Shown piece by piece: positions 3,095 through 42,032 of a DNA stretch of 42,032 bases (the first letter of the stretch is position 1; each line of letters starts with the position of its first letter). The stretch lies in the IMG/VR virus record IMGVR_UViG_3300045988_070658; one strand, written 5' to 3'. Made by a program: the position numbers and the translations under genes. The DNA comes from a virus. The notes under the pieces are model-generated. The model made no database searches. It worked only from the letters and a program-made list of their open reading frames with translations, and had not been told where the DNA came from.

Positions 3095-4252
3095 TCAAGG
3101 ATTTTTGCTGACATAAGCGTCCAACAGAGCCGTATATTTTTGCGTTTCGTCCTCCCGCAGATGCTGGTAAATGCGCCGGGTGGTCATGATATCCGCATGA
3201 CCCAGAAGCTGCTGCGCCACCATATCCGGCACACCTGCGTAGAACAGATTTGTGGCGAACAGATGCCGGAACTGATGCGCCGTAACCAGTGGCCGGAACT
3301 CCTGACGCTGTACAGTGCGCTCCGGGCGAAGCGATGTGCCTGGTATCTTCGCTTCTCTGGTGTAGCTCTCGCATAAACCGATGTCCCGGCAGTACATCGT
3401 CCAGCGGCGGCTATACTGGCTCTGCGTAAGGGGCTTATCTGTGCCGGACAGCACATAGTCCTCCGGGCGGTGGGCAGCCTTCCCTGCTTCCAGCAGAGGA
3501 CGCAGCGGGCTGAGGATCGGGACAGAGCGGTACGCTTTCTTTGTTTTCAGCAGTTCCTTATACGGCTGGTTACGGCTCCACGGCATGGCCTGCACCGGCG
3601 TGATGACCCCGGCATCCAGATCTACGTCCTTCCACTGCAAGCCGTTTGCTTCGCCCATGCGCAGCCCGGTGTATTCAAAGAGCCACGCCCAGAATCCGCA
3701 GCCCTCGGGGTGGGCGTTGATGATCTCCCGCTGTTCCTCGGTAGGCTCTTCCCTGCCGCCCTCCGGCAGCCCGGCGGGGAGCTTTGCCAGCGGCACAGGA
3801 TTCCCGGTGCCGTGGTACTCCGCGCACCAATAGGAGAACACGCAGGACAGCACGCTCTTTGCGTTTTTGACCGAGTGCTTGCTCTTGCCCTGCGTTTTCA
3901 GAAGCTCCAGATACCCCCGCACCGCTTGCGCGTCGATATCCTGCATCGGGGTATCCCCGAAGTACGCGCGCATGGGCGGGAAGTTCTTGCAGTAGGCGTT
4001 CACCGTACCGCGCCGCACCGGAGAAGCATCGCTCTTGATATACTCCTCATACGCCACCGACACCACCCGAAACGTGTAGCGCTTTTCCTTCGGGGTCATG
4101 GATTCGATTTTGTAGTCCAGCACGGCCTGCTGGTATTTACGCTCCGCCTCGGCTTTGGATCTGCCATAAAAGACCCTGGGCTTTGGCAGTCCGGCGCTCC
4201 GGTGGATGCACACCCGGCCATCCGGGCGCTTTGTCTTTTTCGTTTCAGCCAT
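3095..4252 (-). CDS. int: Tyrosine recombinase / phage integrase
   Basis: C-terminal catalytic region ..HQFRHLFATNLF..LLGHADIMTTRRIYQHL (R..HxxR..Y signature). Start chosen at ATG 4252 (MAETKKTK) with GGAGGTG RBS at 4259-4265. The ORF-track extension to 4294 overlaps a plus-strand promoter. Confidence 0.9.
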   Translation of the reverse strand: MAETKKTKRPDGRVCIHRSAGLPKPRVFYGRSKAEAERKYQQAVLDYKIESMTPKEKRYTFRVVSVAYEEYIKSDASPVRRGTVNAYCKNFPPMRAYFGDTPMQDIDAQAVRGYLELLKTQGKSKHSVKNAKSVLSCVFSYWCAEYHGTGNPVPLAKLPAGLPEGGREEPTEEQREIINAHPEGCGFWAWLFEYTGLRMGEANGLQWKDVDLDAGVITPVQAMPWSRNQPYKELLKTKKAYRSVPILSPLRPLLEAGKAAHRPEDYVLSGTDKPLTQSQYSRRWTMYCRDIGLCESYTREAKIPGTSLRPERTVQRQEFRPLVTAHQFRHLFATNLFYAGVPDMVAQQLLGHADIMTTRRIYQHLREDETQKYTALLDAYVSKNP

Positions 4253-4277
4253 AACAACACCTCCAAAAGGGTACACT

Positions 4278-4306
4278 TTGACAAGCCCGCCCAAATGAGG
4301 TATAAT
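4278..4306 (+). promoter_or_regulatory. Perfect consensus sigma70-type promoter TTGACA-N17-TATAAT, divergent from int
   Basis: TTGACA 4278-4283, 17-nt spacer, TATAAT 4301-4306. Confidence 0.7.
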
Positions 4307-4309
4307 CGC

Positions 4310-4393
4310 ATTGTTGGTGTGCGATGACCCCGCAAGGGTGAGCCGCTTATTTTACGCTCTCGGTGTTCCAGCACCGGGGGCGTTTTTGTTTTT
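4310..4393 (+). ncRNA. Putative small RNA of about 80 nt (promoter-to-terminator unit)
   Basis: Begins about 7 nt after the -10. Has a CCC-GCAA-GGG tetraloop hairpin at 4329-4338. Intrinsic terminator stem 4355-4365 / 4372-4382 (two G-U pairs) plus T5GT5 at 4383-4393. No credible ORF or RBS. Confidence 0.5.
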
Positions 4394-4420: not shown

Positions 4421-4651
4421 GCAACAAAAGTTTAGTTGTTTTCAACATTTGTCCGTCTACAAACCTGCGCAACGCTTGTAGACACGAAAAAGTGAGTATC
4501 CGTGCAGGTTTTCGGGTTTCAACATACAGAACATACGAAATCTCTTATAAAGACCCTGAATAGAAGAAAAGAAGAGTATACACGCATAGGAACAGCTTTA
4601 TATTCTTCCCGTGAGGGATTTATAGGTTTTTCGTATGCTTTGTATGCTCGG
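4421..4651 (+). repeat. Structured AT-rich repeat element, copy A (231 nt)
   Basis: Collinear with 29338-29568. Hairpin 1 at 4455-4483. Long imperfect hairpin 4521-4648 with arms made of tandem 9-mers ACATACAGA/ACATACGAA and their complement. Confidence 0.85.
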
Positions 4652-4665
4652 CGTGGGACGGCAGA

Positions 4666-5508
4666 TCAGTAGACCTTCCGGCACTCGATCACCTTGCCCA
4701 GCACCCTGACCGGGACCTTTCGTGGGTCGTAGATCTGCGGCTGGTGGGCGGGGTTCAGGCTCCGGGGCGTCAAGATCACCAGTTCCCCTTCTCTGCGGAA
4801 GGTTTTCACCGTGGCTTCATCCCCATTGACCAGCACCACCGCGATCTCGCCGTTCTCCACCTCCGGCTGCTCCCGGACAAGGATCTGGTCGCCGTCATCC
4901 ATTCCGGCGGCGTTCATGCTATCGCCCCGGATATTCAGCCAGAAATAAACAGCGCCGTCCGTTTGCCGGATGGGGATGTACCCCTCGATATTCTCCTCGG
5001 CATACATGGGCAGTCCAGCCCGGACAGTACCCAGCAGCGGAGCGACCTGTGCCATAATGCACGGTGTAGCTCCCACTCGCTTCTTCCAGTCAGCGCCCTC
5101 GTGGTCCTCCACCACGGGGGCGTTTTTCTTTTTGTCCAGAGCATCCGCCTGCCGCATTTTGCAAGCTTCATCGGCCTGTTCCCGGTCGATCTCCTGCCAA
5201 GCCTGCCACGCCTTGGAGTAATCCCCACCACAGCTTTGCAGCACAGCGTCCCACCGGGGACCGTAGACATTGGCAAGCCGGGCGTCCGGGTCGCTGTCCC
5301 AATCGTAGGAATCATCGGTTTCGTCCAGAAGGTAGTCCAAGGACACCTCGAAATAATCAGCGAGCTTTTTCAGCTGGGCAGTCTGTGGTGTTCGCCCCAG
5401 ATTCTTCCAAGTGGACACCGTGCCCTTGCTGATACCGGCTTCTACCGCAACCGCCGAGGGACTTTTTCCTACGGACTTGCAGAGCTTGCGATACTTGTCA
5501 TAAAACAT
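4666..5508 (-). CDS. CI-like repressor (XRE HTH + LexA/S24 peptidase domain)
   Basis: N-terminal HTH ..SPSAVAVEAGISKGTVSTWKN.. and C-terminal S24 motifs GDSMNAAG .. GEIAVVLVNGDEATVKTF. A linker of about 100 aa separates them. Divergent from the cro-like gene. Confidence 0.85.
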   Translation of the reverse strand: MFYDKYRKLCKSVGKSPSAVAVEAGISKGTVSTWKNLGRTPQTAQLKKLADYFEVSLDYLLDETDDSYDWDSDPDARLANVYGPRWDAVLQSCGGDYSKAWQAWQEIDREQADEACKMRQADALDKKKNAPVVEDHEGADWKKRVGATPCIMAQVAPLLGTVRAGLPMYAEENIEGYIPIRQTDGAVYFWLNIRGDSMNAAGMDDGDQILVREQPEVENGEIAVVLVNGDEATVKTFRREGELVILTPRSLNPAHQPQIYDPRKVPVRVLGKVIECRKVY

Positions 5509-12212: not shown

Positions 12213-12493
12213 TGACGATGAAAGACACGACAGCAAAGGTTTCCACCATCCCCCCGGCTTGGTTTCAGTGCCCCTGTGGAGCGATGATACTGGTCCCGCC
12301 GGGCTGCACCAGTGATTCAGTTGGACTGACCAGATACCGTAAGAGCAAATACGCTCGTGACGGAGGTTGGTCAGTGGTCTGTACCCGCTGCGGCAGGGTC
12401 GGTGAACGCGGCCACACTCAGGCCGAAGCAAAGGCCAAGTGGGACGCAGGATTGTTTAAATACGGCCCGCTGAAGGAGGACAAAGACAAATGA
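12212..12493 (+). CDS. Zinc-ribbon protein, Lar-like (restriction alleviation family resemblance)
   Basis: CPCG ... CTRCG pairs followed by ..HTQAEAKAKWDAG.., which resembles the Lar family C-terminus. Confidence 0.4.
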   Translation: MTMKDTTAKVSTIPPAWFQCPCGAMILVPPGCTSDSVGLTRYRKSKYARDGGWSVVCTRCGRVGERGHTQAEAKAKWDAGLFKYGPLKEDKDK

Positions 12494-14895
12494 GCGCTAC
12501 ACCAATTGAGATCAGCGCGGGCGGCAGCCGGACGGCGACACACTGGTTCGCGGCATCGTTCGCGGACTGGAACAAACTCGCCAGCGAGCTGGGAAAGCTG
12601 ATGGACCGCAACTGCGGCACCGAGACCCACGCGGAGTACATGACCCTGCCCAAGACCGAACAGGACAAGCGCAAGGACGTGGGCGGTTTTGTGGGCGGCA
12701 GCCTGCGGGACGGAAGTCGTAAACGCGGATGCTGCACCGGGCGCAGCCTGATCACGCTGGACATGGACAACTGCGCCCCCGGCAGCACGGAGCAGTGGGT
12801 GGCTGCCATTAAGGCCATGGGCACCGCAGCGGTCTACTCCACCCGCAAGCACGATCCGGAGCACCCGCGTCTGCGGGCCATCTTCCCCACCGACCGCGTG
12901 ATGCAGCCGGAGGAGTACCAGCCCTGTGCCCGGATGCTGGCGCAGATGCTGGACCCCACCATGCAGGTGTTTGACCCGACCACCTTCGAGACCGAGCGCC
13001 TGATGTACTGGCCCAGCCGCAGCAGCGACAGCCAGTGGGTCTGCGAAGCCACCGAGGACGGCAGCCGGATCTGCGTGGACGACCTGCTGTGGCTCTACGC
13101 CGACTGGCACGATATGCGCCAGTGGCCTGCGTGCCCCGCTGAGACGGTCAAGCTGCCCGGCGGCAAACAGGCAGACCCCACCACAAAACCCGGCGTCGTG
13201 GGTGCTTTCTGCCGGACTTACGACGTGCCCGCAGCAATCGAGAAGTTTCTCCCCGGGGTGTACGTCGATGCAGGCGCAGGCCGTCTGACCTACGCCGCAG
13301 GCAGCACCACCGCAGGTGCGGTGCTTTACGACAACGACACCTTCATCTACAGCCACCACAGCACCGACCCCGCAGGCGGCAAGCTGCTCAACGCATGGGA
13401 TCTGGTGCGTATCCATAAGTTCGGCGATCAGGACGCAGACGCAGCCCCGGGCACGCCTACCGCCTCCCTGCCCAGCTGGCAGCAGATGCGGGCGCTGGCA
13501 GAGAGCGACAACCCCACAGCCACCCGGCTCCGGCAGGAAGCCGTAGACCACGCAATGGAGGGCTTCGAGCCACAACCGGACAGCCCTGAGGACCCGGACA
13601 AGTGGCAGGAAAAGCTCGACCGCACCCAGAAGGGAGCTATCGCCTGCACCATTCAGAACGCATGGGTGATCTTGGAGAACGACCCCGCTTTGAAAGGGCG
13701 CATCTGGTCGGACACCTTCTCGGAGCGGCTGCGGTGCAAAGGCCCCTTCCCTTGGAGCGACAAGGCGCAGGAGCGGGACTGGAGCGACGAGGACGATGCG
13801 GGCGTGCGCTGGTATCTGGAGACCATCTACCGCTTCAGCGGAGTCAACAAGGCCGCCGATGCGGTGGCGCTGACCGGTGGTCGCCACGCAAAAGACCCGG
13901 TGCGGGAATACCTGACCGGGCTTGTATGGGACGGCATCGAACGGCTGGACACACTGTTCATCGACTATCTGGGCGCAGAGGACAACAGCTACACCAGAGC
14001 GGTGACGAGGAAGATGTTCGTGGCAGCGGTAGCCCGGTGCTTCCGTCCGGGGTGCAAGTTCGACCAGATCTGCATCCTCAGCGGTAAACAGGGCATCGGC
14101 AAAAGCCTGCTGCTCTCCCGCATGGGCATGGACTGGTTCAACGACAGCATCACCAGCTTTGACGGCAAGGAAGCCCGCGAGAATCTGCGGGGCGTCTGGA
14201 TCGTAGAGCTGGGCGAAATGACCGCTTTCAGCCGCTCCGAGAGCGAAGCAGCCAAGCAGTTCCTGAGCCAAACCGAGGACAGATACCGCGCCGCTTATGG
14301 CCGCAGAACGGTGCAGTACCCCCGCCGGTGCGTGTTCTTCGGCACCTCCAACAGCGCCGATTTCCTCCGCGATGCCACCGGAAACCGCCGTTACTGGCCC
14401 ATAGATTGCAGTTTTGAGCGCCGGACAAAGGTAGTTCACGATGATCTGACCCCCGCAGAGGTGGGGCAACTGTGGGCTGAAGCCGTGGCAAGATTCAAGT
14501 CCGGGGAGGAACTGATCCTCCGGGACGAGCTGCAAAAAGTCGCCCTGGCCGAGCAGCAGGCGCACACCGAACGAGACCCATGGGAGGGCAGCATCACCGA
14601 TTTTCTGGACAAGACCATCCCGCTGGACTGGGGCAAGCGCAGCATCGACGAACGCATCTGCTGGTTGGAAAACGGCTCTTCCGATGGGGAGAGCACCACC
14701 CAGAAACGCATGACTATCTGCGCCAACGAGGTCTGGCGGGAGTGCATCGACCGCACCGGCAGAGACCCTGACCGGGTGCAGACCAAACGGATCAACGCCA
14801 TCCTGAACAGCCTCCCGGGGTGGGTGCCGGGCAAGTACCCGCAGCGGTGCGGGGCATACGGGATGCAGCGCATCTGGCGCAGGAAACCGGAGTAA
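12490..14895 (+). CDS. Primase / helicase (VirE-like, P4 alpha-type P-loop NTPase)
   Basis: 801 aa. N-terminal primase-like region with LITLDMDN acidic motif. Walker A SGKQGIGKS and Walker B-like VWIVELGE. Typical partner of DUF2800, DUF2815 and PolA. Confidence 0.8.
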   Translation: MSATPIEISAGGSRTATHWFAASFADWNKLASELGKLMDRNCGTETHAEYMTLPKTEQDKRKDVGGFVGGSLRDGSRKRGCCTGRSLITLDMDNCAPGSTEQWVAAIKAMGTAAVYSTRKHDPEHPRLRAIFPTDRVMQPEEYQPCARMLAQMLDPTMQVFDPTTFETERLMYWPSRSSDSQWVCEATEDGSRICVDDLLWLYADWHDMRQWPACPAETVKLPGGKQADPTTKPGVVGAFCRTYDVPAAIEKFLPGVYVDAGAGRLTYAAGSTTAGAVLYDNDTFIYSHHSTDPAGGKLLNAWDLVRIHKFGDQDADAAPGTPTASLPSWQQMRALAESDNPTATRLRQEAVDHAMEGFEPQPDSPEDPDKWQEKLDRTQKGAIACTIQNAWVILENDPALKGRIWSDTFSERLRCKGPFPWSDKAQERDWSDEDDAGVRWYLETIYRFSGVNKAADAVALTGGRHAKDPVREYLTGLVWDGIERLDTLFIDYLGAEDNSYTRAVTRKMFVAAVARCFRPGCKFDQICILSGKQGIGKSLLLSRMGMDWFNDSITSFDGKEARENLRGVWIVELGEMTAFSRSESEAAKQFLSQTEDRYRAAYGRRTVQYPRRCVFFGTSNSADFLRDATGNRRYWPIDCSFERRTKVVHDDLTPAEVGQLWAEAVARFKSGEELILRDELQKVALAEQQAHTERDPWEGSITDFLDKTIPLDWGKRSIDERICWLENGSSDGESTTQKRMTICANEVWRECIDRTGRDPDRVQTKRINAILNSLPGWVPGKYPQRCGAYGMQRIWRRKPE

Positions 14896-14904
14896 TTACC
14901 CGCC

Positions 14905-15274
14905 TGAAAACCAACATACAAAGCTTGCCGAAACCGGTTTGGTGAGCATACAGAACATACAAGCAAGGTCGGCATACAAAGCATACAAGAATTTCTGAAA
15001 ACTTTAAGAAACCCGAAGAAAACAAGTACCCCGAAAAAGCACCGAACATACAGAACATACAAGCAACATACAAAGACCGCAAGCGTTTGTATGCTCGAAA
15101 AAGTGAGGGCTGATGCGGGTTTTCAGGCTAAAACATACGAAACATACAATCTTTTTCTTCTTTAAGTGAAAAACAGAAGGATTTAAGATACACGCGCGTA
15201 TACGCGAGAGCCTTATATCCTTCACGTGAGGGTTTTATAGAGAAGCCGTATGTTTTGTATGTTTCGTATGTTTT
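14905..15274 (+). repeat. Iteron field plus structured repeat element copy B (core 15067-15274)
   Basis: Ten direct and four inverted 9-mers RCATACRRN in exact 9-bp register. Hairpin 1 at 15067-15093. Long hairpin 15130-15274. Palindrome AAACCGGTTT at 14931-14940. No credible ORF. Confidence 0.85.
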
Positions 15275-15300
15275 GCCCAGAGCAGAGAGGAGTAACTACT

Positions 15301-15633
15301 ATGACCAACAAACCACTGGAAAAGAGCATCGAGAACATTCTCCGGCAGGCGGTGGAGGATGACGGCGGGCTGTGCCTGAAATGGACCTGCCCCGGGCACA
15401 GGGGTGTGCCAGACCGCATGGTCATCTTCCCCGGCGGCATCATCGCCTTTGTGGAGCTCAAGCGCCCCGGGGCAAAGGTCAAGGCAGGCGGGCTGCAGAA
15501 CTGGTGGCGGCAGCGGCTGGCGGAGTTCGGATTTCCCTGCTACGAGATCAGCACCGCCGAGCAGGTGAAGCAGCTGGTGTTTCACCTGAGCACGGAGAGC
15601 TTCTACCGCATGACCGAAAATAGCGCCGACTGA
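15301..15633 (+). CDS. VRR-NUC domain nuclease
   Basis: ..GVPDRMVIFPGGIIAFVELKRPG.. (PD..E.K core). ATG 15301 after AGAGGAG. The ORF-track start at 15250 lies inside the repeat. Confidence 0.7.
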   Translation: MTNKPLEKSIENILRQAVEDDGGLCLKWTCPGHRGVPDRMVIFPGGIIAFVELKRPGAKVKAGGLQNWWRQRLAEFGFPCYEISTAEQVKQLVFHLSTESFYRMTENSAD

Positions 15634-20423: not shown

Positions 20424-21689
20424 ATGGAGCGTGTGAAACACCAAATCGAGTACAAACGGCTGGACGAGATCCGCCCCTATGACAACAACCCCCGGCGCAA
20501 TGACGAGGCCGCCAAAGCCGTGGCCAACAGCATCCGGGAGTTTGGCTTCCAGTCCCCTATAATCGTGGACAGGGATGGCGTGATCATCGCCGGGCACACC
20601 CGGTACAAGGCCGCCCGGCGGCTGAAACTGCAGGAGGTGCCGGTCATCGTGGCGGCAGAGCTGGACCCGGAGAAGGTCAAGGCTCTGCGCATCGCAGACA
20701 ACTCCACCGGCGAGGTGGCACAGTGGGACTTGCAGCTTCTGGTGCAGGAGCTGACCGGCATCGACTATGACATGACCGACTTCGGCCTGAATCTCCAGAT
20801 CAAGATCGACGAGGAAGTCAAAGAGGACGACTTCACCGCAGAGCCCCCGGAGCAGCCCATCACCCAGCGGGGTGACATCTGGCTGCTGGGCGACCACCGG
20901 GTCATGTGCGGCGACAGCACCAGCCCGCAGGACGTGGAGCAGCTCATGGACGGCCAGCTGGCCGATCTGCTGCTCACCGACCCGCCCTATAACGTGAACT
21001 ATCAGGGCTCGAACGGCAAGAAGATCGAGAACGACAACATGGCAGAGAGCCAGTTCCGGCAGTTCCTGCTTCAGGCATACTGCCGGGCTTTCGATGCCTG
21101 CCGCACCGGGGCCAGCGCGTACATTTTCCACGCAGACACGGAGGGCGAAGCATTCCGGGCGATGTTCCGGGAGGCGGGCTGGGGGCTGCATGGGTGTCTG
21201 GTCTGGGTCAAGAACAGCCTTGTTCTCGGCCACAGCGACTACCAGTGGCAGCACGAGCCCTGCCTGTATGGCTGGAAGCCCGGCGCAAACCATTACTTCA
21301 TCAACGACCGCAGCCAGACCACTGTCATAGATGACGCAAAGCCCGAGGATCTGCGCAAGATGAAGAAGGACGAGCTGCTGGAATGGGCGGTCAAGGCGCA
21401 GGAGCTGCTGACCCAGAAACCCAGCAGCGTCATCCGCTGCGATAAGCCGCCCCGCAATGCAGAGCACCCCACCATGAAGCCAGTGGTGCTCTGCGGCAGG
21501 CTGATCAAAAACAGTTCCATGCCCGGGCAGGCCGTGCTGGATCTGTTCGGCGGCAGCGGTTCTACGCTGATTGCCTGCGAACAGCTGAGCCGGAAGTGCT
21601 ACACCATGGAGTACGACCCGCGCTATGTGGACGTGATCGTTAAACGCTGGGAGGACTTCACCGGCGAAAAAGCAGTCCGCCTGAAATAA
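20424..21689 (+). CDS. ParB-like nuclease domain fused to a DNA methyltransferase (N6-A/N4-C type)
   Basis: N-terminal ParB/Srx-like ..IRPYDNNPRRND...GFQSPIIVDRDGVIIAGHTRYKAA... MTase motif IV LLLTDPPYNV and motif I LDLFGGSGSTLIA. Confidence 0.85.
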   Translation: MERVKHQIEYKRLDEIRPYDNNPRRNDEAAKAVANSIREFGFQSPIIVDRDGVIIAGHTRYKAARRLKLQEVPVIVAAELDPEKVKALRIADNSTGEVAQWDLQLLVQELTGIDYDMTDFGLNLQIKIDEEVKEDDFTAEPPEQPITQRGDIWLLGDHRVMCGDSTSPQDVEQLMDGQLADLLLTDPPYNVNYQGSNGKKIENDNMAESQFRQFLLQAYCRAFDACRTGASAYIFHADTEGEAFRAMFREAGWGLHGCLVWVKNSLVLGHSDYQWQHEPCLYGWKPGANHYFINDRSQTTVIDDAKPEDLRKMKKDELLEWAVKAQELLTQKPSSVIRCDKPPRNAEHPTMKPVVLCGRLIKNSSMPGQAVLDLFGGSGSTLIACEQLSRKCYTMEYDPRYVDVIVKRWEDFTGEKAVRLK

Positions 21690-26380: not shown

Positions 26381-26409
26381 TGGACTTCCTGAATGGGCTG
26401 TGCTATAAT
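26381..26409 (+). promoter_or_regulatory. Sigma70-type promoter with extended -10 (TGGACT-N17(..TGC)-TATAAT) for the lipoprotein moron
   Basis: TATAAT 26404-26409 preceded by TGC. -35 TGGACT at 26381-26386. Confidence 0.6.
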
Positions 26410-26437
26410 TCAGGCCAGAATAAAGGAGGTTTCATCT

Positions 26438-26947
26438 ATGAAAATCAAGAACTTTGTCCGGGCGGGTATTGTCCTGCTCGCGCTGGCATTCAGCTTGACG
26501 GCCTGCGGCGGCAGCGCTTCCAGCACTGCAAGCAGCGTAGCATCCAGTGCCCCAGTCAGTTCTGTAAGCGAGAGCGTTACACCGGAGACGGACTCTACCA
26601 GCGCAGAGTCCTCGCCCTTGGATGGTGTCAATTTCAGCGTGACTAAAGTTCGGAATGATGCCACTGGAAACTGGCGTATCTCCTGCATCGCCGAGAATCT
26701 CGACATGAGCGAGTATGCCTTGGACTACTACAAACAGTATTTCACGGGTGACAGCGAGATTCACTTCATCGTCAATTTCAACTACAACACCACCACAAAA
26801 ATCATGGTGATGGGCGGTGATCTGGACGTGACCGTTCAGGAGTACGTAGCCAAGGAAGAGCACGACGCAAAGGTGCTGGGCAGCGGAACTGTACTGGCCG
26901 AATATTTTGTAAACATCGAAACTGGCGAGATCGAGAAGGTCCGGTAA
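26438..26947 (+). CDS. Secreted lipoprotein (moron; possible superinfection exclusion)
   Basis: Signal peptide MKIKNFVRAGIVLLALAFSLTAC with lipobox L-T-A-C. AAGGAGG RBS. Own promoter and terminator. Confidence 0.75.
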   Translation: MKIKNFVRAGIVLLALAFSLTACGGSASSTASSVASSAPVSSVSESVTPETDSTSAESSPLDGVNFSVTKVRNDATGNWRISCIAENLDMSEYALDYYKQYFTGDSEIHFIVNFNYNTTTKIMVMGGDLDVTVQEYVAKEEHDAKVLGSGTVLAEYFVNIETGEIEKVR

Positions 26948-26956
26948 ACATACAGC

Positions 26957-26999
26957 GAAAACGCCCTGAAGGAATACACCTTCAGGGCGTTTTTTTTTT
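26957..26999. terminator. Bidirectional rho-independent terminator
   Basis: 12-bp stem 26961-26972 / 26979-26990, A-run on the 5' side and nine T on the 3' side. Sits between convergent genes. Confidence 0.85.
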
Positions 27000-27009
27000 A
27001 TTGAGTAAT

Positions 27010-27291
27010 TCAATTGAAGTGCTCCAGCAGTTCATCCACAAAAGCCTTTGCCGCCGGGGTCAGTGGGCGGGTGCACCAGCCACGGTCAAAGCAGGCAACC
27101 TCCTGCCAGTAGCGAACCTCACCGGGAGGTAGCTCAGCGATCCAGAGCTTTGAGACCCTGCCACCGTTAATACCGAACTGGCTGCCAGTTGCGTAAACCT
27201 TGGCTTCCCACCGGAACACGTGCCCGTTTCGCTCGGTCTGGCCTTCATGCCAGAGCTGACCGCCCATCTCTGCACGGAATCCACGCATCAC
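27010..27291 (-). CDS. Hypothetical protein (93 aa), last gene of the minus-strand operon
   Basis: Overlapping start and stop with the upstream gene. No family recognised. Confidence 0.55.
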   Translation of the reverse strand: MMRGFRAEMGGQLWHEGQTERNGHVFRWEAKVYATGSQFGINGGRVSKLWIAELPPGEVRYWQEVACFDRGWCTRPLTPAAKAFVDELLEHFN

Positions 27292-27554
27292 TGATCACCC
27301 CCGCCGTAGTCCACCACATAGCCGTTGTACACGAAGTTCTCTGCCGCCATGGCAGCGTCGAGGATCCGGTTTGCATACTCGGCAGCTTCCGCCGGGCTCT
27401 TGATCCCGAGAGAGCCCCACTGGACTCCCAGCTTCACCGGTGTGCCCTGCCGGGCAAAGTTGGTGTTGAAAATCCGAATGCAGTCCCACTCAGTGAACTG
27501 CGCCTGAAGCGCACCCAGCGCCTCGTTGTACACCTTCCAGTTGACCGTCTTCAT
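27288..27554 (-). CDS. Hypothetical protein (88 aa)
   Basis: GAGGAGGGG RBS on the minus strand. No family recognised. Confidence 0.55.
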   Translation of the reverse strand: MKTVNWKVYNEALGALQAQFTEWDCIRIFNTNFARQGTPVKLGVQWGSLGIKSPAEAAEYANRILDAAMAAENFVYNGYVVDYGGGDQ

Positions 27555-27567
27555 AGATTACCCCTCC

Positions 27568-27789
27568 TCAATTTGCCTTAATCAGAATGCCCTTGTCCAA
27601 TGCGAACCACACACCATCGTCCTTCTGCACGGTCTTGCAGCCCTGTGCCCGGAGCAGCTCCCGCATCTTCGACAGCTGGTGCTCAGTGCACTGCATCCAG
27701 AAGAACCCGGCATAGTTAAACCACTCGTTGCTCTGGATGTTCACAGTGCGGGCATTCTCAAAAATGCGGTTGAAGGTGCTGGTTTTCAT
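27568..27789 (-). CDS. Hypothetical protein (73 aa)
   Basis: AAGGAGGA RBS on the minus strand. No family recognised. Confidence 0.55.
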   Translation of the reverse strand: MKTSTFNRIFENARTVNIQSNEWFNYAGFFWMQCTEHQLSKMRELLRAQGCKTVQKDDGVWFALDKGILIKAN

Positions 27790-27809
27790 GATTTTGTCCT
27801 CCTTTTTGA

Positions 27810-28214
27810 TTACACATCAAAGCTGACCGAATGATATGCGAACCAGTGCCCACAGCGGCGGTGCAGCTTGTACCAGTTTGTGAAACGCTGACCGGAACAG
27901 TCATAGGGTGTGGGGCGAAACTCATAGTAGCGATTTGCCTGGAACCACTCGGCGGCATCGTCCTCATTGACCTTGTCCAGCTCGTCCGGGAGCCGCACCA
28001 GCTCAATGTAGCCATTAATGCCGTGCTCTTCGATAATGCGGCTGTCAGGTGCCGGGCGGTGGGTGAACTCCCGGATTTCGCGCTTGACATCGGCGATGTG
28101 CCTGTCCCGGCGAGCTACGTTCTCCACCGGAACAGTGACTTCTCTCAGGGTACGAACGAAACTGTAGGCTGCCCGCAGGCTTGCCATATCATTGATATTG
28201 AACACGATCACCAT
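27810..28214 (-). CDS. Hypothetical protein (134 aa)
   Basis: Start ATG 28214 (MVIVFNI..) overlaps the upstream stop. The ORF-track extension to 28355 overlaps the upstream gene. No family recognised. Confidence 0.5.
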   Translation of the reverse strand: MVIVFNINDMASLRAAYSFVRTLREVTVPVENVARRDRHIADVKREIREFTHRPAPDSRIIEEHGINGYIELVRLPDELDKVNEDDAAEWFQANRYYEFRPTPYDCSGQRFTNWYKLHRRCGHWFAYHSVSFDV

Positions 28215-28438
28215 TCCCCCTTCATGGCTGCCTGGGCGATTGCCCGCTCTTCCTTCTCCTGATCCAGCGCCTGTGCAAAAGCATCCAGCGCGCTGGCCCT
28301 CGTGATCGGACCGAACTCCTTCACAAAGTAGGCGAAGGTGCGCTCGTCCCAGCATTCGACATAGCCATCGCCGCCCTTATCGTAGTTCTCGCGGGCCAGC
28401 TTCATGAACTGGTCGTAGGTCAATGCACGTTCTTTCAT
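28208..28438 (-). CDS. Hypothetical protein (76 aa)
   Basis: AAGGAGGACTGAACC ATG context on the minus strand. Confidence 0.55.
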   Translation of the reverse strand: MKERALTYDQFMKLARENYDKGGDGYVECWDERTFAYFVKEFGPITRASALDAFAQALDQEKEERAIAQAAMKGEW

Positions 28439-28441
28439 GGT

Positions 28442-28693
28442 TCAGTCCTCCTTGTTCGTGTACTCGTCGGTGTCCCGGCTGGATTCGCCCATCAGAAACA
28501 CCCGGTGCTTGCCCTTGGCATCCCGTACCCAGTCGCCACCAAGAGCGGTGAGGGCGAAGATCATCCCTTGGTACTGACCCTCGGCGCACAGCCGGGTCGG
28601 CTCCGGCAGGTCCTCCCGGTGCATGACGCACCACTGAGAGTCCATATTGAACGCCAGCGTCCCCAGATGGCCGCGCAGTTCCTTCTTCTTCAT
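28442..28693 (-). CDS. Hypothetical protein (83 aa)
   Basis: AAGGAGGACTAAACC ATG context on the minus strand. Confidence 0.55.
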   Translation of the reverse strand: MKKKELRGHLGTLAFNMDSQWCVMHREDLPEPTRLCAEGQYQGMIFALTALGGDWVRDAKGKHRVFLMGESSRDTDEYTNKED

Positions 28694-28706
28694 GGTTTAG
28701 TCCTCC

Positions 28707-28865
28707 TTAGTTGCCAGCGTAGGCCAGAATGCCTACGAAGTTATCCTGATCGACCATACGGAGTGCGAAGCGCTCCAGCGCCGCCTGGGTTTTGAACACC
28801 CGACGCTTAGTCACGATCTTGTCGTGGCTGCCGACCACCTGATACACAATCTCCAATTTAACCAT
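28707..28865 (-). CDS. Hypothetical protein (52 aa, below the ORF-track cutoff), first gene of the operon
   Basis: My own translation: MVKLEIVYQVVGSHDKIVTKRRVFKTQAALERFALRMVDQDNFVGILAYAGN. GGAGGA RBS 8 nt upstream of the ATG. Confidence 0.45.
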   Translation of the reverse strand: MVKLEIVYQVVGSHDKIVTKRRVFKTQAALERFALRMVDQDNFVGILAYAGN

Positions 28866-28915
28866 TTTTCGTTTTCCTCCGTTATTTTTTATCCCGGGAC
28901 TCTTCCGGTAGCCGT

Positions 28916-28944
28916 ATATTACCTCTGCGTAGAAACAAAGTCAA
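28916..28944 (-). promoter_or_regulatory. Sigma70-type promoter TTGACT-N17-TAATAT driving the seven-gene minus-strand operon
   Basis: The reverse complement of 28939-28944 is TTGACT and that of 28916-28921 is TAATAT, with a 17-nt spacer. Confidence 0.6.
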
Positions 28945-28980
28945 GTTGTTTTTGATTTGTTTTTCAATTTCTTTTAGTTG

Positions 28981-29009
28981 TTGACTTTTGCCCTGGCAAG
29001 TCGTATCCT
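28981..29009 (+). promoter_or_regulatory. Sigma70-type promoter TTGACT-N17-TATCCT for the divergent HTH gene
   Basis: TTGACT 28981-28986, 17-nt spacer, TATCCT 29004-29009. About 25 nt upstream of ATG 29034. Confidence 0.5.
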
Positions 29010-29033
29010 TGTGGCAGAAAGGAGCGATTTAAA

Positions 29034-29261
29034 ATGACCACATCCTCAAGGATCAAAGCCCTGTTAGAGCTGACCAGCACCGAACAGACAGCCTTCGCCG
29101 CAGCGTTCGGCATGACCACCCCGCAGGCCATGAATAACAAGCTGCGGCGGGACAGCTGGTCGGCAAAAGACCTCGCCAAAGCCGCCACGATCTGCGGTGC
29201 GCAGCTGGCATTCCTTCTGCCGGACGGCTCCCGGCTCATCATCAGCCCGGAAGAGGAATAA
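29034..29261 (+). CDS. XRE/Cro-type HTH regulator (75 aa), divergent from the small-gene operon
   Basis: ..TSTEQTAFAAAFGMTTPQAMNNKLRR.. is an HTH. AAGGAG RBS. Own promoter and terminator. Confidence 0.65.
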   Translation: MTTSSRIKALLELTSTEQTAFAAAFGMTTPQAMNNKLRRDSWSAKDLAKAATICGAQLAFLLPDGSRLIISPEEE

Positions 29262-29276
29262 CCGCTACACGGCAAA

Positions 29277-29324
29277 GAAGCCCCGCCCCACGGAGAACGA
29301 GCCTCCCGGGGCGGGGCTTCTTTT
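29277..29324 (+). terminator. Strong rho-independent terminator
   Basis: 13-bp GC-rich stem GAAGCCCCGCCCC (29277-29289) / GGGGCGGGGCTTC (29308-29320), followed by TTTT. Confidence 0.8.
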
Positions 29325-29337
29325 GCAACATACGAAA

Positions 29338-29568
29338 GCAACAAAAATTTAGTTGATTGCAACATTTATCAACATACAAACCCGTCTCGGTTTGTATGCA
29401 GCCAAAAACCTAGGCGTGATGCGGCTTTTTGCCACCTAACATACAGAACATACGAAATCTCTTATAAAGACCCTGAACAGAAGAAAATAAGAATACACGC
29501 GTATAGGAATAGCCTTATACCCTTCGCGTGAGGGATTTATAGGGTTTTCGTATGCTTTGTATGCTCGG
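29338..29568 (+). repeat. Structured AT-rich repeat element, copy C (231 nt)
   Basis: Collinear with copy A. Hairpin 1 at 29373-29398. Long hairpin 29438-29565. An extra iteron lies at about 29327. Confidence 0.85.
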
Positions 29569-40196: not shown

Positions 40197-42032
40197 TTGA
40201 GCAGCGATATCGTAACTTACCCGCTGAATGGCATCACCTATACGGCAGAAGAAGCCGCCGGGTATCACTCGGCCAGAACTTCGGGCGTCTACTGCCTTGA
40301 CGAGGATTTCAAAGTCAGTCTCTCGAGCGGCGGCAAATCGGTACGGATCAGCTCTGGCAGAGCATGGGTGCACCCCAGCCGCTTTACCGGCTACAGCATC
40401 ATTATGCAATGGCCTGTCACACTGGCTTTGTCGACGCCCACACTTTTGTGCTCTCGCGTCGACCGCGTGGTGCTCCGGTTTGACAGGCGCGCCCGCCGCT
40501 CCTATCTGACAGTGCTGAAGGGCACGGAGATCTTCGGTGGTACCCCCAGCAGCTCTGCAGCGCCCCAGATCACCCGCAACGAATACGTATACGACCTGTG
40601 TCTGGCAGAGATCCGGTATTTCGCCGGTACGAATATCATCCCAAGTCTCATAGACACCCGAGGCGATGAGTCTCTCTGCGGCCTGATGCGCGACGGCGTG
40701 ACCCGCATCCCGGAGCTGACCATCGGCACTGTGACCACAGGCGAGACCGCCAGTGCCACCATCAAAAACGGCGTGCTGAGCCTTGTGCTGCCGAACGGCA
40801 ACGGCGGCAGCAGCACCGGCGGCTCCGGCCTGAGCGAGACCAGCAAGACCCTGCTGCTGTCCCTTTTGGAAAACGCCGCCTACACCAGCCCCTCCATGCA
40901 GGCGCAGCTGAACGCCCTGCGCACCGAGTGGAGCAGCAGCGGCGGTGGCAGTGACGAGATCCCGGTACAGAGCGTAAGCCTGAGCAGCAGCGCCCTGACC
41001 CTGAACGAGGGCGAGAGCAAGACCCTGACCGCCACCGTGCTGCCTGCGGACGCCACCAATAAAAGTGTCATCTGGACGGTGACCCCAACCGGCATTGCCA
41101 CCGTGGTAAATGGCACTGTGACGGCCAGCAAGGCGGGCGGCTGCACCGTTACGGCTATGGCAGGCGGTAAGAGCGCCAGCTGCACCGTGACGGTCAAGGC
41201 CGCAGCAGCAGAAGCCGAAGCAACCCTGCTGTACACTCTGTCGTCCGCAACCACCACGTCCTCGGCAGACAAGACCTGTCTGGATACCGGGCTGCAGCTG
41301 CTGGCAAAGGCATCCACCGAGACCCCGCAGTACACCATTTTGTGGGAAGCGCAGGTAGCCGATAATGCAGACGCAAGCACGTGGCCGAACATGATCAACT
41401 GCCAGACCGAGAAGGGCAACTTTACTGATATGCCGGGCTTTAACGGCAACCTGAACCCGAACACCGGCACGCTCGATTTTGCCTATTATAAATATTCCTT
41501 TGACGATGCACGTCTGTGCGATACACTGGAGCACGCAAAAACCAAGACGCGCTATGCCGTTCAGCTGAACGGAGCACAGTATCGTGTCGGCAGCACCCAT
41601 TGTACCTTGAGCGGATGGAAAAAGACCGGCGATACGGTCAAGGATGTGCCGGAAACGCTTATCTTTGGCGCAGCCTACACCGCAACGGGCGAGCACACCC
41701 GCTTTCTGGACTGTACCATCTCCCAGTGCATGGTGTACAAGGGTCTGCTGAGCGACAGCAAGCTCCAGTCGTACATCAATGGCGAGTGGGGCAACGATGC
41801 GGAGACAGTCCCGGTGCAGAGCGTCAGCCTGAGCCAGTCTGCCCTGACCCTGAAAAGGGGCGGCAGCGCTACACTGACTGCTACTGTGCTGCCTGCGGAT
41901 GCCACCAACCGTGCAGTGGTCTGGACGGTAAGCCCCAGCGGCTATGCAACGGTATCCGCTGGCAAGGTAACTGCCGCGAAGGCCGGCACCTGTACGGTGA
42001 CCGCCACCGCAGGCGGCAAGAGCGCCAGCTGC
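40197..42032 (+). CDS. Tail fibre / receptor-binding protein, N-terminal 611 codons (open at the window end, continues at nt 120)
   Basis: Absent from the ORF track because there is no stop before the window end. TTG 40197 lies 6 nt after AGGAGGG. N-terminal anchor region of about 255 aa, then two tandem [Big_2 Ig-like + beta-rich domain of about 200 aa] modules (40962-41810, then 41811-42032 plus 120-701). Confidence 0.8.
   Translation, partial: MSSDIVTYPLNGITYTAEEAAGYHSARTSGVYCLDEDFKVSLSSGGKSVRISSGRAWVHPSRFTGYSIIMQWPVTLALSTPTLLCSRVDRVVLRFDRRARRSYLTVLKGTEIFGGTPSSSAAPQITRNEYVYDLCLAEIRYFAGTNIIPSLIDTRGDESLCGLMRDGVTRIPELTIGTVTTGETASATIKNGVLSLVLPNGNGGSSTGGSGLSETSKTLLLSLLENAAYTSPSMQAQLNALRTEWSSSGGGSDEIPVQSVSLSSSALTLNEGESKTLTATVLPADATNKSVIWTVTPTGIATVVNGTVTASKAGGCTVTAMAGGKSASCTVTVKAAAAEAEATLLYTLSSATTTSSADKTCLDTGLQLLAKASTETPQYTILWEAQVADNADASTWPNMINCQTEKGNFTDMPGFNGNLNPNTGTLDFAYYKYSFDDARLCDTLEHAKTKTRYAVQLNGAQYRVGSTHCTLSGWKKTGDTVKDVPETLIFGAAYTATGEHTRFLDCTISQCMVYKGLLSDSKLQSYINGEWGNDAETVPVQSVSLSQSALTLKRGGSATLTATVLPADATNRAVVWTVSPSGYATVSAGKVTAAKAGTCTVTATAGGKSASC
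41914..42032. repeat. Terminal direct repeat, right copy (identical to 1-119)
   Basis: Same evidence as the left copy. Confidence 0.9.

Follow-up and report, generated by a model that had tools for sequence, protein, structure and literature searches.

The Rep proteins of Staphylococcus aureus pathogenicity islands (SaPIs) are self-loading helicase-initiators that recognise iterons through a C-terminal winged helix, and the SaPI origin lies immediately 3' of rep, with 6-12 iterons and an AT-rich centre flanked on either side by two or more of them, in opposite directions on the two sides (PMC9371898). Enterococcus phage Abitsa (Efquatrovirus) encodes a self-loading helicase that is a homologue of PriRep5, and an AT-rich region surrounded by seven 10-bp iterons has been predicted at the expected locus (PMC13517437). 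In phage SPP1, one initiator binds two distant regions, oriL and oriR, each formed by repeats and an AT-rich unwinding element; oriR is located between the minor head gene 7 and the scaffold gene 11, next to morons, and is bracketed by transcription signals (PMC6316719). According to the SPP1 model, the oriR-bound initiator is a barrier to forks, and this barrier sets off the switch from theta to sigma replication (PMC3485210). Here we analyze a 42,032-nucleotide stretch of viral DNA (IMG/VR record IMGVR_UViG_3300045988_070658; the whole stretch is hereafter called the window), in which a non-coding gap directly after a primase-helicase gene, locus B, is very likely the replication origin of the phage, an assignment that is well supported by computation. 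Two further loci, A and C, are conserved copies of the ori-like core with all of its parts, and it is reasonably likely that the same protein binds them.

A first-pass annotation of this DNA had already read the gap as a candidate origin. That reading is supported by the homology of the encoded protein to SaPI1 Rep, by a SaPI-like layout of the locus, by an iteron field that is fixed in position but changes in sequence between lineages, and by an iteron class that tracks residues of the C-terminal domain of the protein. The anatomy, statistics, homology, conservation and covariation described below were all computed. Taken as a whole, the explanation that we consider likely is that B is a pri-rep-ori origin like those of the SaPIs, under the control of a self-loading helicase-initiator, and that A and C are paralogous copies of the origin core.

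An iteron field behind the primase-helicase gene

The gap after the gene (14896-15300) is 405 nt long and has a GC content of 0.41 in a genome of 0.60, in line with the AT-richness first attributed to it. All of the ten direct 9-mers (RCATACRRN) and four inverted copies that had been reported in the gap are present. The direct units start at 14914, 14946, 14955, 14972, 14981, 15046, 15055, 15066, 15133 and 15142, and the cores of the inverted copies occupy 15087-15094, 15246-15253, 15255-15262 and 15264-15271; the reported inverted starts are off by 1-2 nt, which concerns only how the 9-mer frame is drawn. The first iteron is found 19 nt past the stop codon of the primase-helicase gene (14895). 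The proposed head-to-tail register of 9 bp holds for four direct pairs (14946/14955, 14972/14981, 15046/15055 and 15133/15142) and for the inverted triplet. The motif RCATACRR has 28 matches in the window, compared with 6.03 ± 2.46 expected from 100 dinucleotide-preserving shuffles, the largest of which gave 14 and none of which reached 28. Three loci, A, B and C, hold 24 of the 28 matches, and half of all matches (14/28) sit in the gap of locus B.

The upstream part of locus B (14914-15094) is a field of eight direct 9-mers, those starting at 14914 to 15066, and one inverted copy at 15086-15094. The units at 15066 and 15086 constitute an "upstream inverted pair" that has counterparts in A and C, and the extra direct-iteron field upstream is found only in B among the three modules. 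The core of B then consists of a left iteron pair on the plus strand (15133-15150; ACATACGAA ACATACAAT), a 95-bp spacer with a GC content of 0.39 (15151-15245), and a right arm on the minus strand with three inverted iterons in 9-bp register (15246-15273). The spacer begins with a purine-rich AT-rich stretch, a candidate DNA-unwinding element, followed by a GC palindrome, CGCGTATACGCG, and by a conserved core, CTTATATCCTTCACGTGAGGGTTTTATAG, that is kept across iteron classes. The least stable 40-nt window of the whole genome starts at 15150, in this spacer. A different, perfect palindrome, AAACCGGTTT, to which the first-pass annotation had drawn attention, is indeed present at 14931-14940; relatives retain only GCCGAAACCG, so that it is probably incidental, and for this lack of conservation it was rejected as a functional element.

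The gene preceding the field (12490-14895, plus strand) encodes an 801-residue protein that is predicted to join, in one chain, an archaeo-eukaryotic primase (AEP; residues ~1-370), a VapE/superfamily 3 (SF3) helicase (~370-722) and a Rep-type C-terminal domain (~700-801), as in the fused PriRep5 of SaPI5. The helicase part matches the Pfam family VapE-like_dom (E 9.7e-83), and a phmmer search of the PDB finds SaPI1 Rep (7PDS) over residues 370-722 with an E value of 4.7e-83. An AlphaFold (AF2) model of residues 655-801, with a predicted local distance difference test score (pLDDT) of 87.8, was searched with Foldseek. The search gave, at E ≤ 0.001, solely six chains of 7PDS (E 4.5e-7, template modelling score 0.66, ~160 columns), and the weaker fold matches were winged-helix DNA-binding domains with E ≥ 0.08. 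A model of residues 1-380 (pLDDT 90.4) matches the cyanophage S-2L PrimPol (6ZP9; E 7e-5) and, as second best, RepB' of RSF1010 (3H20; E 8e-3). Pfam returned no family for the N-terminal 380 residues at E ≤ 5, and the primase assignment therefore rests on structure prediction and PHROG names. Pfam scans of the window proteins found none of the plasmid Rep families.

Homologues of the primase-helicase are numerous, with more than 7,700 scored in a full-length search; this search was used because the C-terminal 162 residues alone retrieved 10 fragments. The nearest relatives in isolate genomes and metagenome-assembled genomes (MAGs) are prophages in Faecalibacterium MAG contigs, with 86% identity, and the nearest named phage is Acutalibacter phage Fontainebleau (ON453893; locus L258 of our set). 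Loci with a gene for a relative of the protein, 77 of them viral and 13 from genomes, made up the comparison set. A low-GC gap with an iteron field is located 3' of the gene in every locus examined, from 94% down to about 36% protein identity, and the relatives have in common the layout of a pair, an AT-rich spacer and an inverted set. By contrast, the repeat itself is not conserved. Each lineage has its own 7-9-mer, with at least seven iteron sequences overall, and the lineage repeats include AACATACAA, GACTACAAA/GTCTACAA, GGTTGACAA, GGTTACAAA, GTCCACAAG, CGTTACC/GGTAACGA, GGTAACAA, GTAAACA and AACAGAA. In L123 (36% identity), the VRR-NUC and SNF2 genes have moved upstream of the primase-helicase gene and the iteron field is still 3' of the latter, which indicates that the field belongs to this gene and not to a VRR-NUC promoter region. 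A scan of the collection with TGTCAACNNTGTCAAC gave, among the matches listed, mostly chance hits, and was informative for L132 and L123 only. In Fontainebleau, an unannotated field of seven GGTAACGA copies is found at 12911-13200, between genes annotated as "DNA helicase" and "endonuclease"; it has the layout of a pair, an AT-rich spacer and an inverted unit, and an origin could be annotated there.

The iteron class covaries with the protein. Among the 12 proteins encoded within 4 kb, the primase-helicase alone has alignment columns in which each of the three well-sampled iteron classes differs from the others. The columns are 483, 701, 735, 785, 795 and 799, and all but the first lie in the C-terminal domain. 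PolA, VRR-NUC and SNF2 have zero class-separating columns. The repressor cI was considered as the iteron binder and was rejected, as the divergent region between cI and Rha contains no 9-mers and cI variants (39% vs 74-86% identity) are found with both classes.

One element of the spacer remains constant while the iterons change. The sequence (C)ATATACGCG..GAGAG..TATA(T)AG, at 15185-15245 of the window, persists in relatives with 36-45% initiator identity and wholly different iterons (L035, L037, L047, L050, L053, L059, L066, L123 and, at 3380-3470, L257). Its TATA(T)AG box precedes the right iterons by 8-25 nt in every lineage.

The closest described counterpart of locus B is the pri-rep-ori arrangement of the SaPIs, represented by Rep1 of SaPI1 and PriRep5 of SaPI5, and by the related Cch/Cch2 of staphylococcal cassette chromosome mec (SCCmec) elements. 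The helicase core is homologous and the C-terminal fold is similar. The primase-helicase fusion (as in PriRep5), the origin right after the gene, the iterons around an AT-rich centre and the lineage-variable specificity are also shared. Locus B agrees with the sequence description of a SaPI ori in every respect except the number of iterons, which is 14 instead of 6-12, and the position directly after rep is found in the window and in all relatives, including one with a rearranged gene order. SaPIs are satellite islands, whereas the phage of the window is a complete siphovirus, temperate and with a clostridial host of the gut; their iterons have 5-6 bp, in contrast to the 14 units of 9 bp in strict register, with an upstream field, described here; and the class-independent spacer element and the three copies of the origin core per genome are features of the present phage. 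Abitsa likewise has a SaPI5-like predicted origin in a true phage, and since that prediction is already published, locus B alone is not new. Abitsa differs from the present phage in having a single predicted origin and a lytic lifestyle, with no dispersed copies or covariation analysis reported.

Iteron plasmids of the RepA/Pi/TrfA type have 17-22-bp iterons, a Rep protein with two winged-helix domains, DnaA boxes and DnaB loading, and differ in these respects from a system with 9-bp iterons and a helicase-primase as its predicted initiator. RSF1010 distributes its functions over three separate proteins (RepA, RepB' and RepC) and uses 20-bp iterons. Its oriV resembles locus B in the combination of iterons, an AT-rich region and a conserved dyad-symmetry element, and RepB' (3H20) is a fold match of the primase domain; in the phage, however, there is one chain and iterons of 9 bp, and the inner dyad symmetry is not conserved among the modules. 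According to PMC8567376, the RepB' primase primes on ssiA and ssiB.

Copies of the module at two distant loci

The first-pass annotation had noted inverted pairs of the same 9-mers at two remote positions. These pairs are present, at 4522-4539/4631-4648 in copy A and at 29439-29456/29548-29565 in copy C. A three-way alignment extends this observation, and reveals that A, B and C are paralogous modules of about 195-210 nt in which the likeness reaches well beyond the 9-mers. The three modules have one orientation in common and the same order of elements: an inverted iteron pair whose units are 11-13 nt apart; AAAAAGTGAG..TGATGCGGGTTTT; a direct pair of iterons in 9-bp register; a 91-95-nt spacer; and two or three inverted iterons. 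In each module the spacer has a purine-rich AT-rich start and a GC-containing conserved end (..ACGCG..AGCCTTATAnCCTTCnCGTGAGGGWTTTATAG). Copies A and C are 91% identical over 131 nt.

Copy A as a whole (4455-4648) occupies the interval between int and cI. Its core (4522-4648), between the cI stop (4666) and int, consists of the left pair at 4522-4539, a 91-nt AT-rich spacer at 4540-4630 and the right inverted pair at 4631-4648. The spacer has a GC content of 0.35 and contains the third least stable 40-nt window of the genome. The upstream inverted pair of copy A (4455-4483; GTCTACAAAC ... GCTTGTAGAC) is of the CTAC class, that is, its iterons are those of a different lineage, and this pair within an otherwise CATAC-class module is best read as a trace of recombination between specificity classes. 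A terminator-like hairpin with a 13-bp stem and a T run is located on the plus strand directly upstream of the copy (4354-4393), and the A-like modules of the relatives L214, L215 and L087 are likewise preceded by a terminator. Further upstream, at 4278-4306 on the plus strand, there is a perfect sigma-70 promoter (TTGACA, 17 nt, TATAAT; 12/12 matches). Together with the terminator at 4354-4393, this promoter would yield a plus-strand small RNA of ~80 nt, antisense to the integrase gene start and immediately upstream of it.

Copy C (29371-29565) is located before the scaffold gene. Its upstream inverted pair (29371-29400; ACATACAAACC ... GGTTTGTATGC) is accompanied by a further single iteron at 29328-29335. 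The core (29439-29565) lies between a minus-strand moron block plus a small gene on one side and the scaffold gene (29707) on the other, and is composed of a left pair (29439-29456), a spacer (29457-29547) and a right pair (29548-29565). The spacer has a GC content of 0.38 and contains the fourth least stable 40-nt window of the genome. A terminator-like hairpin similar to that of copy A is found upstream of copy C, at about 29275-29325.

A scan of the relatives for the A/C-type spacer retrieved 35 modules, each at an int|cI or a moron|scaffold position. C-like copies occur in the same context across the CATAC, CTAC and TTGAC classes, and the copy in L132, of the TTGAC class, has TTGAC iterons. 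The iterons of these modules were compared with the class of the resident origin in 20 A/C-type modules from 18 contigs of known B-class. The left pair was fully cognate in 17 of the 20, comprised a cognate unit and a one-mismatch variant in 2, was mixed in 1, and was wholly foreign in none; cognate left pairs of A/C are also found in two of three Faecalibacterium MAG prophages. Several right arms alternate two or three classes, as in GTAGTCAAtGTATGcttGTAGTCAA, next to a purely cognate left pair (L229, L256, L244, L239, L227, L079, L255 and L241), and no CATAC units were seen in the A/C-type modules of CTAC-class genomes. Mixed right arms may reflect incomplete conversion, tolerance of a second initiator, or use by it. 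Judged from these patterns, A and C appear to be under selection to match the resident initiator, with frequent recombination between classes and a matching that is not absolute.

The extra copies have a limited distribution. They are absent in Fontainebleau, in which 7 of 9 GGTAACG sites are found at one locus, and in a lineage with 52% identity, and these single loci rule out the extra copies as a family-wide trait. The predicted origin after the gene is family-wide, and the three-copy form, as far as the sequences compared indicate, is special to a close clade of Faecalibacterium phages.

With respect to its dispersed sites, the phage is most similar to SPP1. Locus B is at the initiator gene, and C is at the place of oriR, in the order gp7-like minor capsid gene (PF06152), morons, C and scaffold gene (PF06810). 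Both genomes have at least two distant regions with repeats and an AT-rich element, three here and two in SPP1. By contrast, SPP1 divides the work between the origin binder gp38, the loader gp39 and the DnaB-type helicase gp40, whereas a single predicted self-loading SF3 primase-helicase is found here. The replication module of the phage includes a DUF2800 nuclease, an Enc34-type SSB (a protein that binds single-stranded DNA), PolA, the AEP-SF3 primase-helicase, a VRR-NUC-like nuclease and SNF2. Moreover, SPP1 is virulent, and the present phage is temperate with its third copy at int/cI.

In satellite phage P4, the alpha protein combines a primase, an SF3 helicase and a C-terminal origin-binding domain, and the same short repeat is present at ori and at a distant cis replication region (crr), which is formed by two direct repeats of ~120 bp. 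The first-pass annotation had described A and C as distant cis sites by this logic. The view that they are sites for the same protein has held up, as their left pair follows the iteron class, but the P4 framing is not established and stands as an analogy only. The domain order is analogous, and cognate iterons are found at the distant loci A and C. However, neither the PDB chains listed by sequence at E ≤ 1 nor the 50 best fold matches of each domain model included P4 alpha, there are no tandem repeats of the crr type, A and C are single complete copies of the core, and there are three loci instead of two. The SaPIs in architecture and SPP1 in dispersion are nearer.

The phage genome

The ends of the window are an exact direct repeat of 119 nt (1-119 and 41914-42032), which indicates that the window is a circularly assembled phage genome of about 41.9 kb (~41,913 bp). 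Its overall GC content is 60%. The gene set is, from its predicted products, that of a temperate siphovirus, and the host is probably a gut Faecalibacterium. The integrase gene (int; 3095-4294) and the gene of a cI-like S24 repressor (4666-5508) are both on the minus strand. Further genes encode Rha, a DUF2800 PD-(D/E)XK nuclease, the Enc34-type SSB and a family A DNA polymerase (PolA), and the gap of locus B is followed by the genes for the VRR-NUC-like nuclease (15301-15633) and the SNF2 helicase. Other genes code for the small and large terminase subunits, the portal, the SPP1 gp7-like minor capsid protein (PF06152), and, from 29707, the scaffold protein (PF06810), followed by capsid and tail genes.

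The order of the head genes is broken by a moron-like block (26393-29261), which separates the gene for the gp7-like minor capsid protein from that for the scaffold. The block includes five or six small genes on the minus strand (27010-28865), none with a known function. The head genes of SPP1 are interrupted likewise, by genes 8-10 and oriR.

No tRNA was found in a scan of the window. The sole Rfam match at E ≤ 1 over the whole window is ctRNA_pGA1, inside cI (5079-5135, plus strand); its score of 24.7 bits is below the gathering score of 45 (E 0.78), and it was treated as chance. Diverged direct repeats with 70-79% identity (40960-41059/41809-41908 and 41065-41183/41914-42032) are spaced 849 nt apart across the assembly junction, and probably stem from the duplication of a domain within a gene close to this junction.

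Alternative readings, proposed mechanism and significance

Several observations weigh against the interpretation of B as an origin with A and C as cognate copies of its core. The GC skew does not exceed 0.02 in absolute value, too weak to mark an origin, and a cumulative maximum at 15.6 kb vanishes on detrending. The discriminating residues adjoin the iteron field, so that physical linkage contributes to their association; VRR-NUC is as near to the field as the C-terminus and yet has no such columns, which means that linkage alone cannot explain the association. The right arms often mix classes, and in roughly half of the modules of CATAC-class genomes there are one or two units of the CTAC class (GTAGTC). 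Copy A of L214 is wholly of the CTAC class although its locus B is CATAC, and cognate binding at A is therefore not always maintained. The lack of A and C in more distant relatives implies that replication by this protein family does not require them. Finally, the three modules are co-oriented and have a conserved TATA-like core, neither of which would be needed by a purely symmetric origin.

The last point leads to the foremost alternative, which we regard as improbable. The modules could be regulated promoter/operator units, with the core as a promoter and the 9-mers as operators for Rep itself or for another regulator. Module B would then drive the genes from VRR-NUC to portal, C those from scaffold to tail, and A an RNA antisense to cI. 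Besides the common orientation, this proposal would account for the plus-strand terminators that precede A and C, and for the position of B and C just 5' of plus-strand operons, with no other promoter-like site before the scaffold gene. A promoter would also explain a TATA(T)AG box at 8-25 nt from the right iterons in all lineages, and a core that is constant while the iterons change. Nevertheless, a sigma-70 scan is empty in B and C and gives only a 9/12 match in A, with a spacing that is not kept in B, and the TATAG box is devoid of the conserved final T of a -10 element. The field of L123 is 3' of the primase-helicase gene despite different downstream genes, and transcription from a promoter in module A would run into cI at its 3' end. 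The additional direct iterons and the very low stability of the duplex are, in turn, typical of origins. A dual role of the modules as origin and promoter is possible; the origins of polyomaviruses and geminiviruses overlap promoters.

A structural role is very unlikely. It would make the modules RNA hairpins (as a small RNA, terminator or attenuator), DNA cruciforms or elements similar to miniature inverted-repeat transposable elements (MITEs), and the 9-mers would covary to keep a stem paired. On either strand, each module does form a single long hairpin (z-scores of -5.4 to -8.9), and its arms are inverted repeats that change together between lineages. Across 30 A/C-type modules, however, only 61% of cells pair, and the inner helices reach 47-60% with almost no compensatory change. 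The outer helix, formed by the iterons, is often broken by the mixed right arms, the eight upstream direct iterons of B cannot join the stem, and Rfam has no match in or near any of the three modules at E ≤ 1. The copies are always found in the same two or three genomic contexts, unlike a mobile element. The RNA/cruciform reading was rejected, because the fold is not conserved in the 30 related modules.

It is least plausible, and hardly to be expected, that the dispersed repeats are centromere-like partition sites, scattered as in the plasmid prophage N15 and bound by the ParB-domain protein encoded at 20424-21689 (plus strand): a domain search does identify ParB_N in this protein and inverted repeats are scattered over the genome, but the domain is part of a fusion with an N6/N4 DNA methyltransferase, it is the primase-helicase gene to which the densest array is linked in every lineage, and the integrase and the location of relatives inside long bacterial contigs, such as the 86%-identity Faecalibacterium prophage embedded in a 173-kb contig (L215), indicate that the phage integrates rather than persisting as a plasmid. 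In two of the Faecalibacterium prophages, L214 and L215, the ParB_N-methylase protein has 96% identity.

For locus B as a SaPI-type origin, the following mechanism can be proposed, in which binding, melting, priming and any role of A and C are what we infer. The C-terminal domain would read the 9-bp iterons RCATACRRN, and the upstream direct-iteron field would recruit the initiator protein. The two left and three inverted right iterons would place helicase hexamers on either side of the 95-bp AT-rich, purine-skewed spacer, which would melt, and the fused primase would then begin synthesis. The constant spacer sequence (...ATACGCG...GAGAG...TATAG) probably serves a conserved partner, for which the primase domain, by analogy with the ssi sites of RSF1010, RNA polymerase or a host factor are candidates. 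Copies A and C may act as secondary origins, or as initiator-bound sites similar to SPP1 oriR, with fork stalling and a theta-to-sigma switch.

A more elaborate proposal, which we advance only tentatively and consider rather doubtful, is that of a three-site replication system in this clade of Faecalibacterium phages. It would have a primary origin at the initiator gene and two near-identical core copies, at the lysogeny module and at the head-gene boundary, that serve as extra origins, or as barriers or switches tied to the theta-to-sigma transition, late gene expression or cI silencing. The mixed right arms could then allow the initiator of a co-resident phage of another specificity class to recognise the sites, in a form of origin sharing or interference between phages. 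No account of a three-locus arrangement of this kind came up in searches covering open-access papers.

Nearly all gut phages have unmapped replication origins, and the present analysis suggests a likely one for a replication module that is very common in phages of Firmicutes. The gene and the gap together (12490-15300) are a candidate for a minimal vector replicon in Faecalibacterium, a genus in which genetic manipulation is difficult. The pairing of at least seven iteron classes with variants of the C-terminal domain provides candidate specificity residues (701, 735, 785, 795 and 799) that bear on DNA recognition by self-loading helicase-initiators. Should A and C prove functional, they would extend the idea of oriL and oriR in SPP1 to an unrelated family of initiators, and would offer an independent system for the control of the concatemeric switch.

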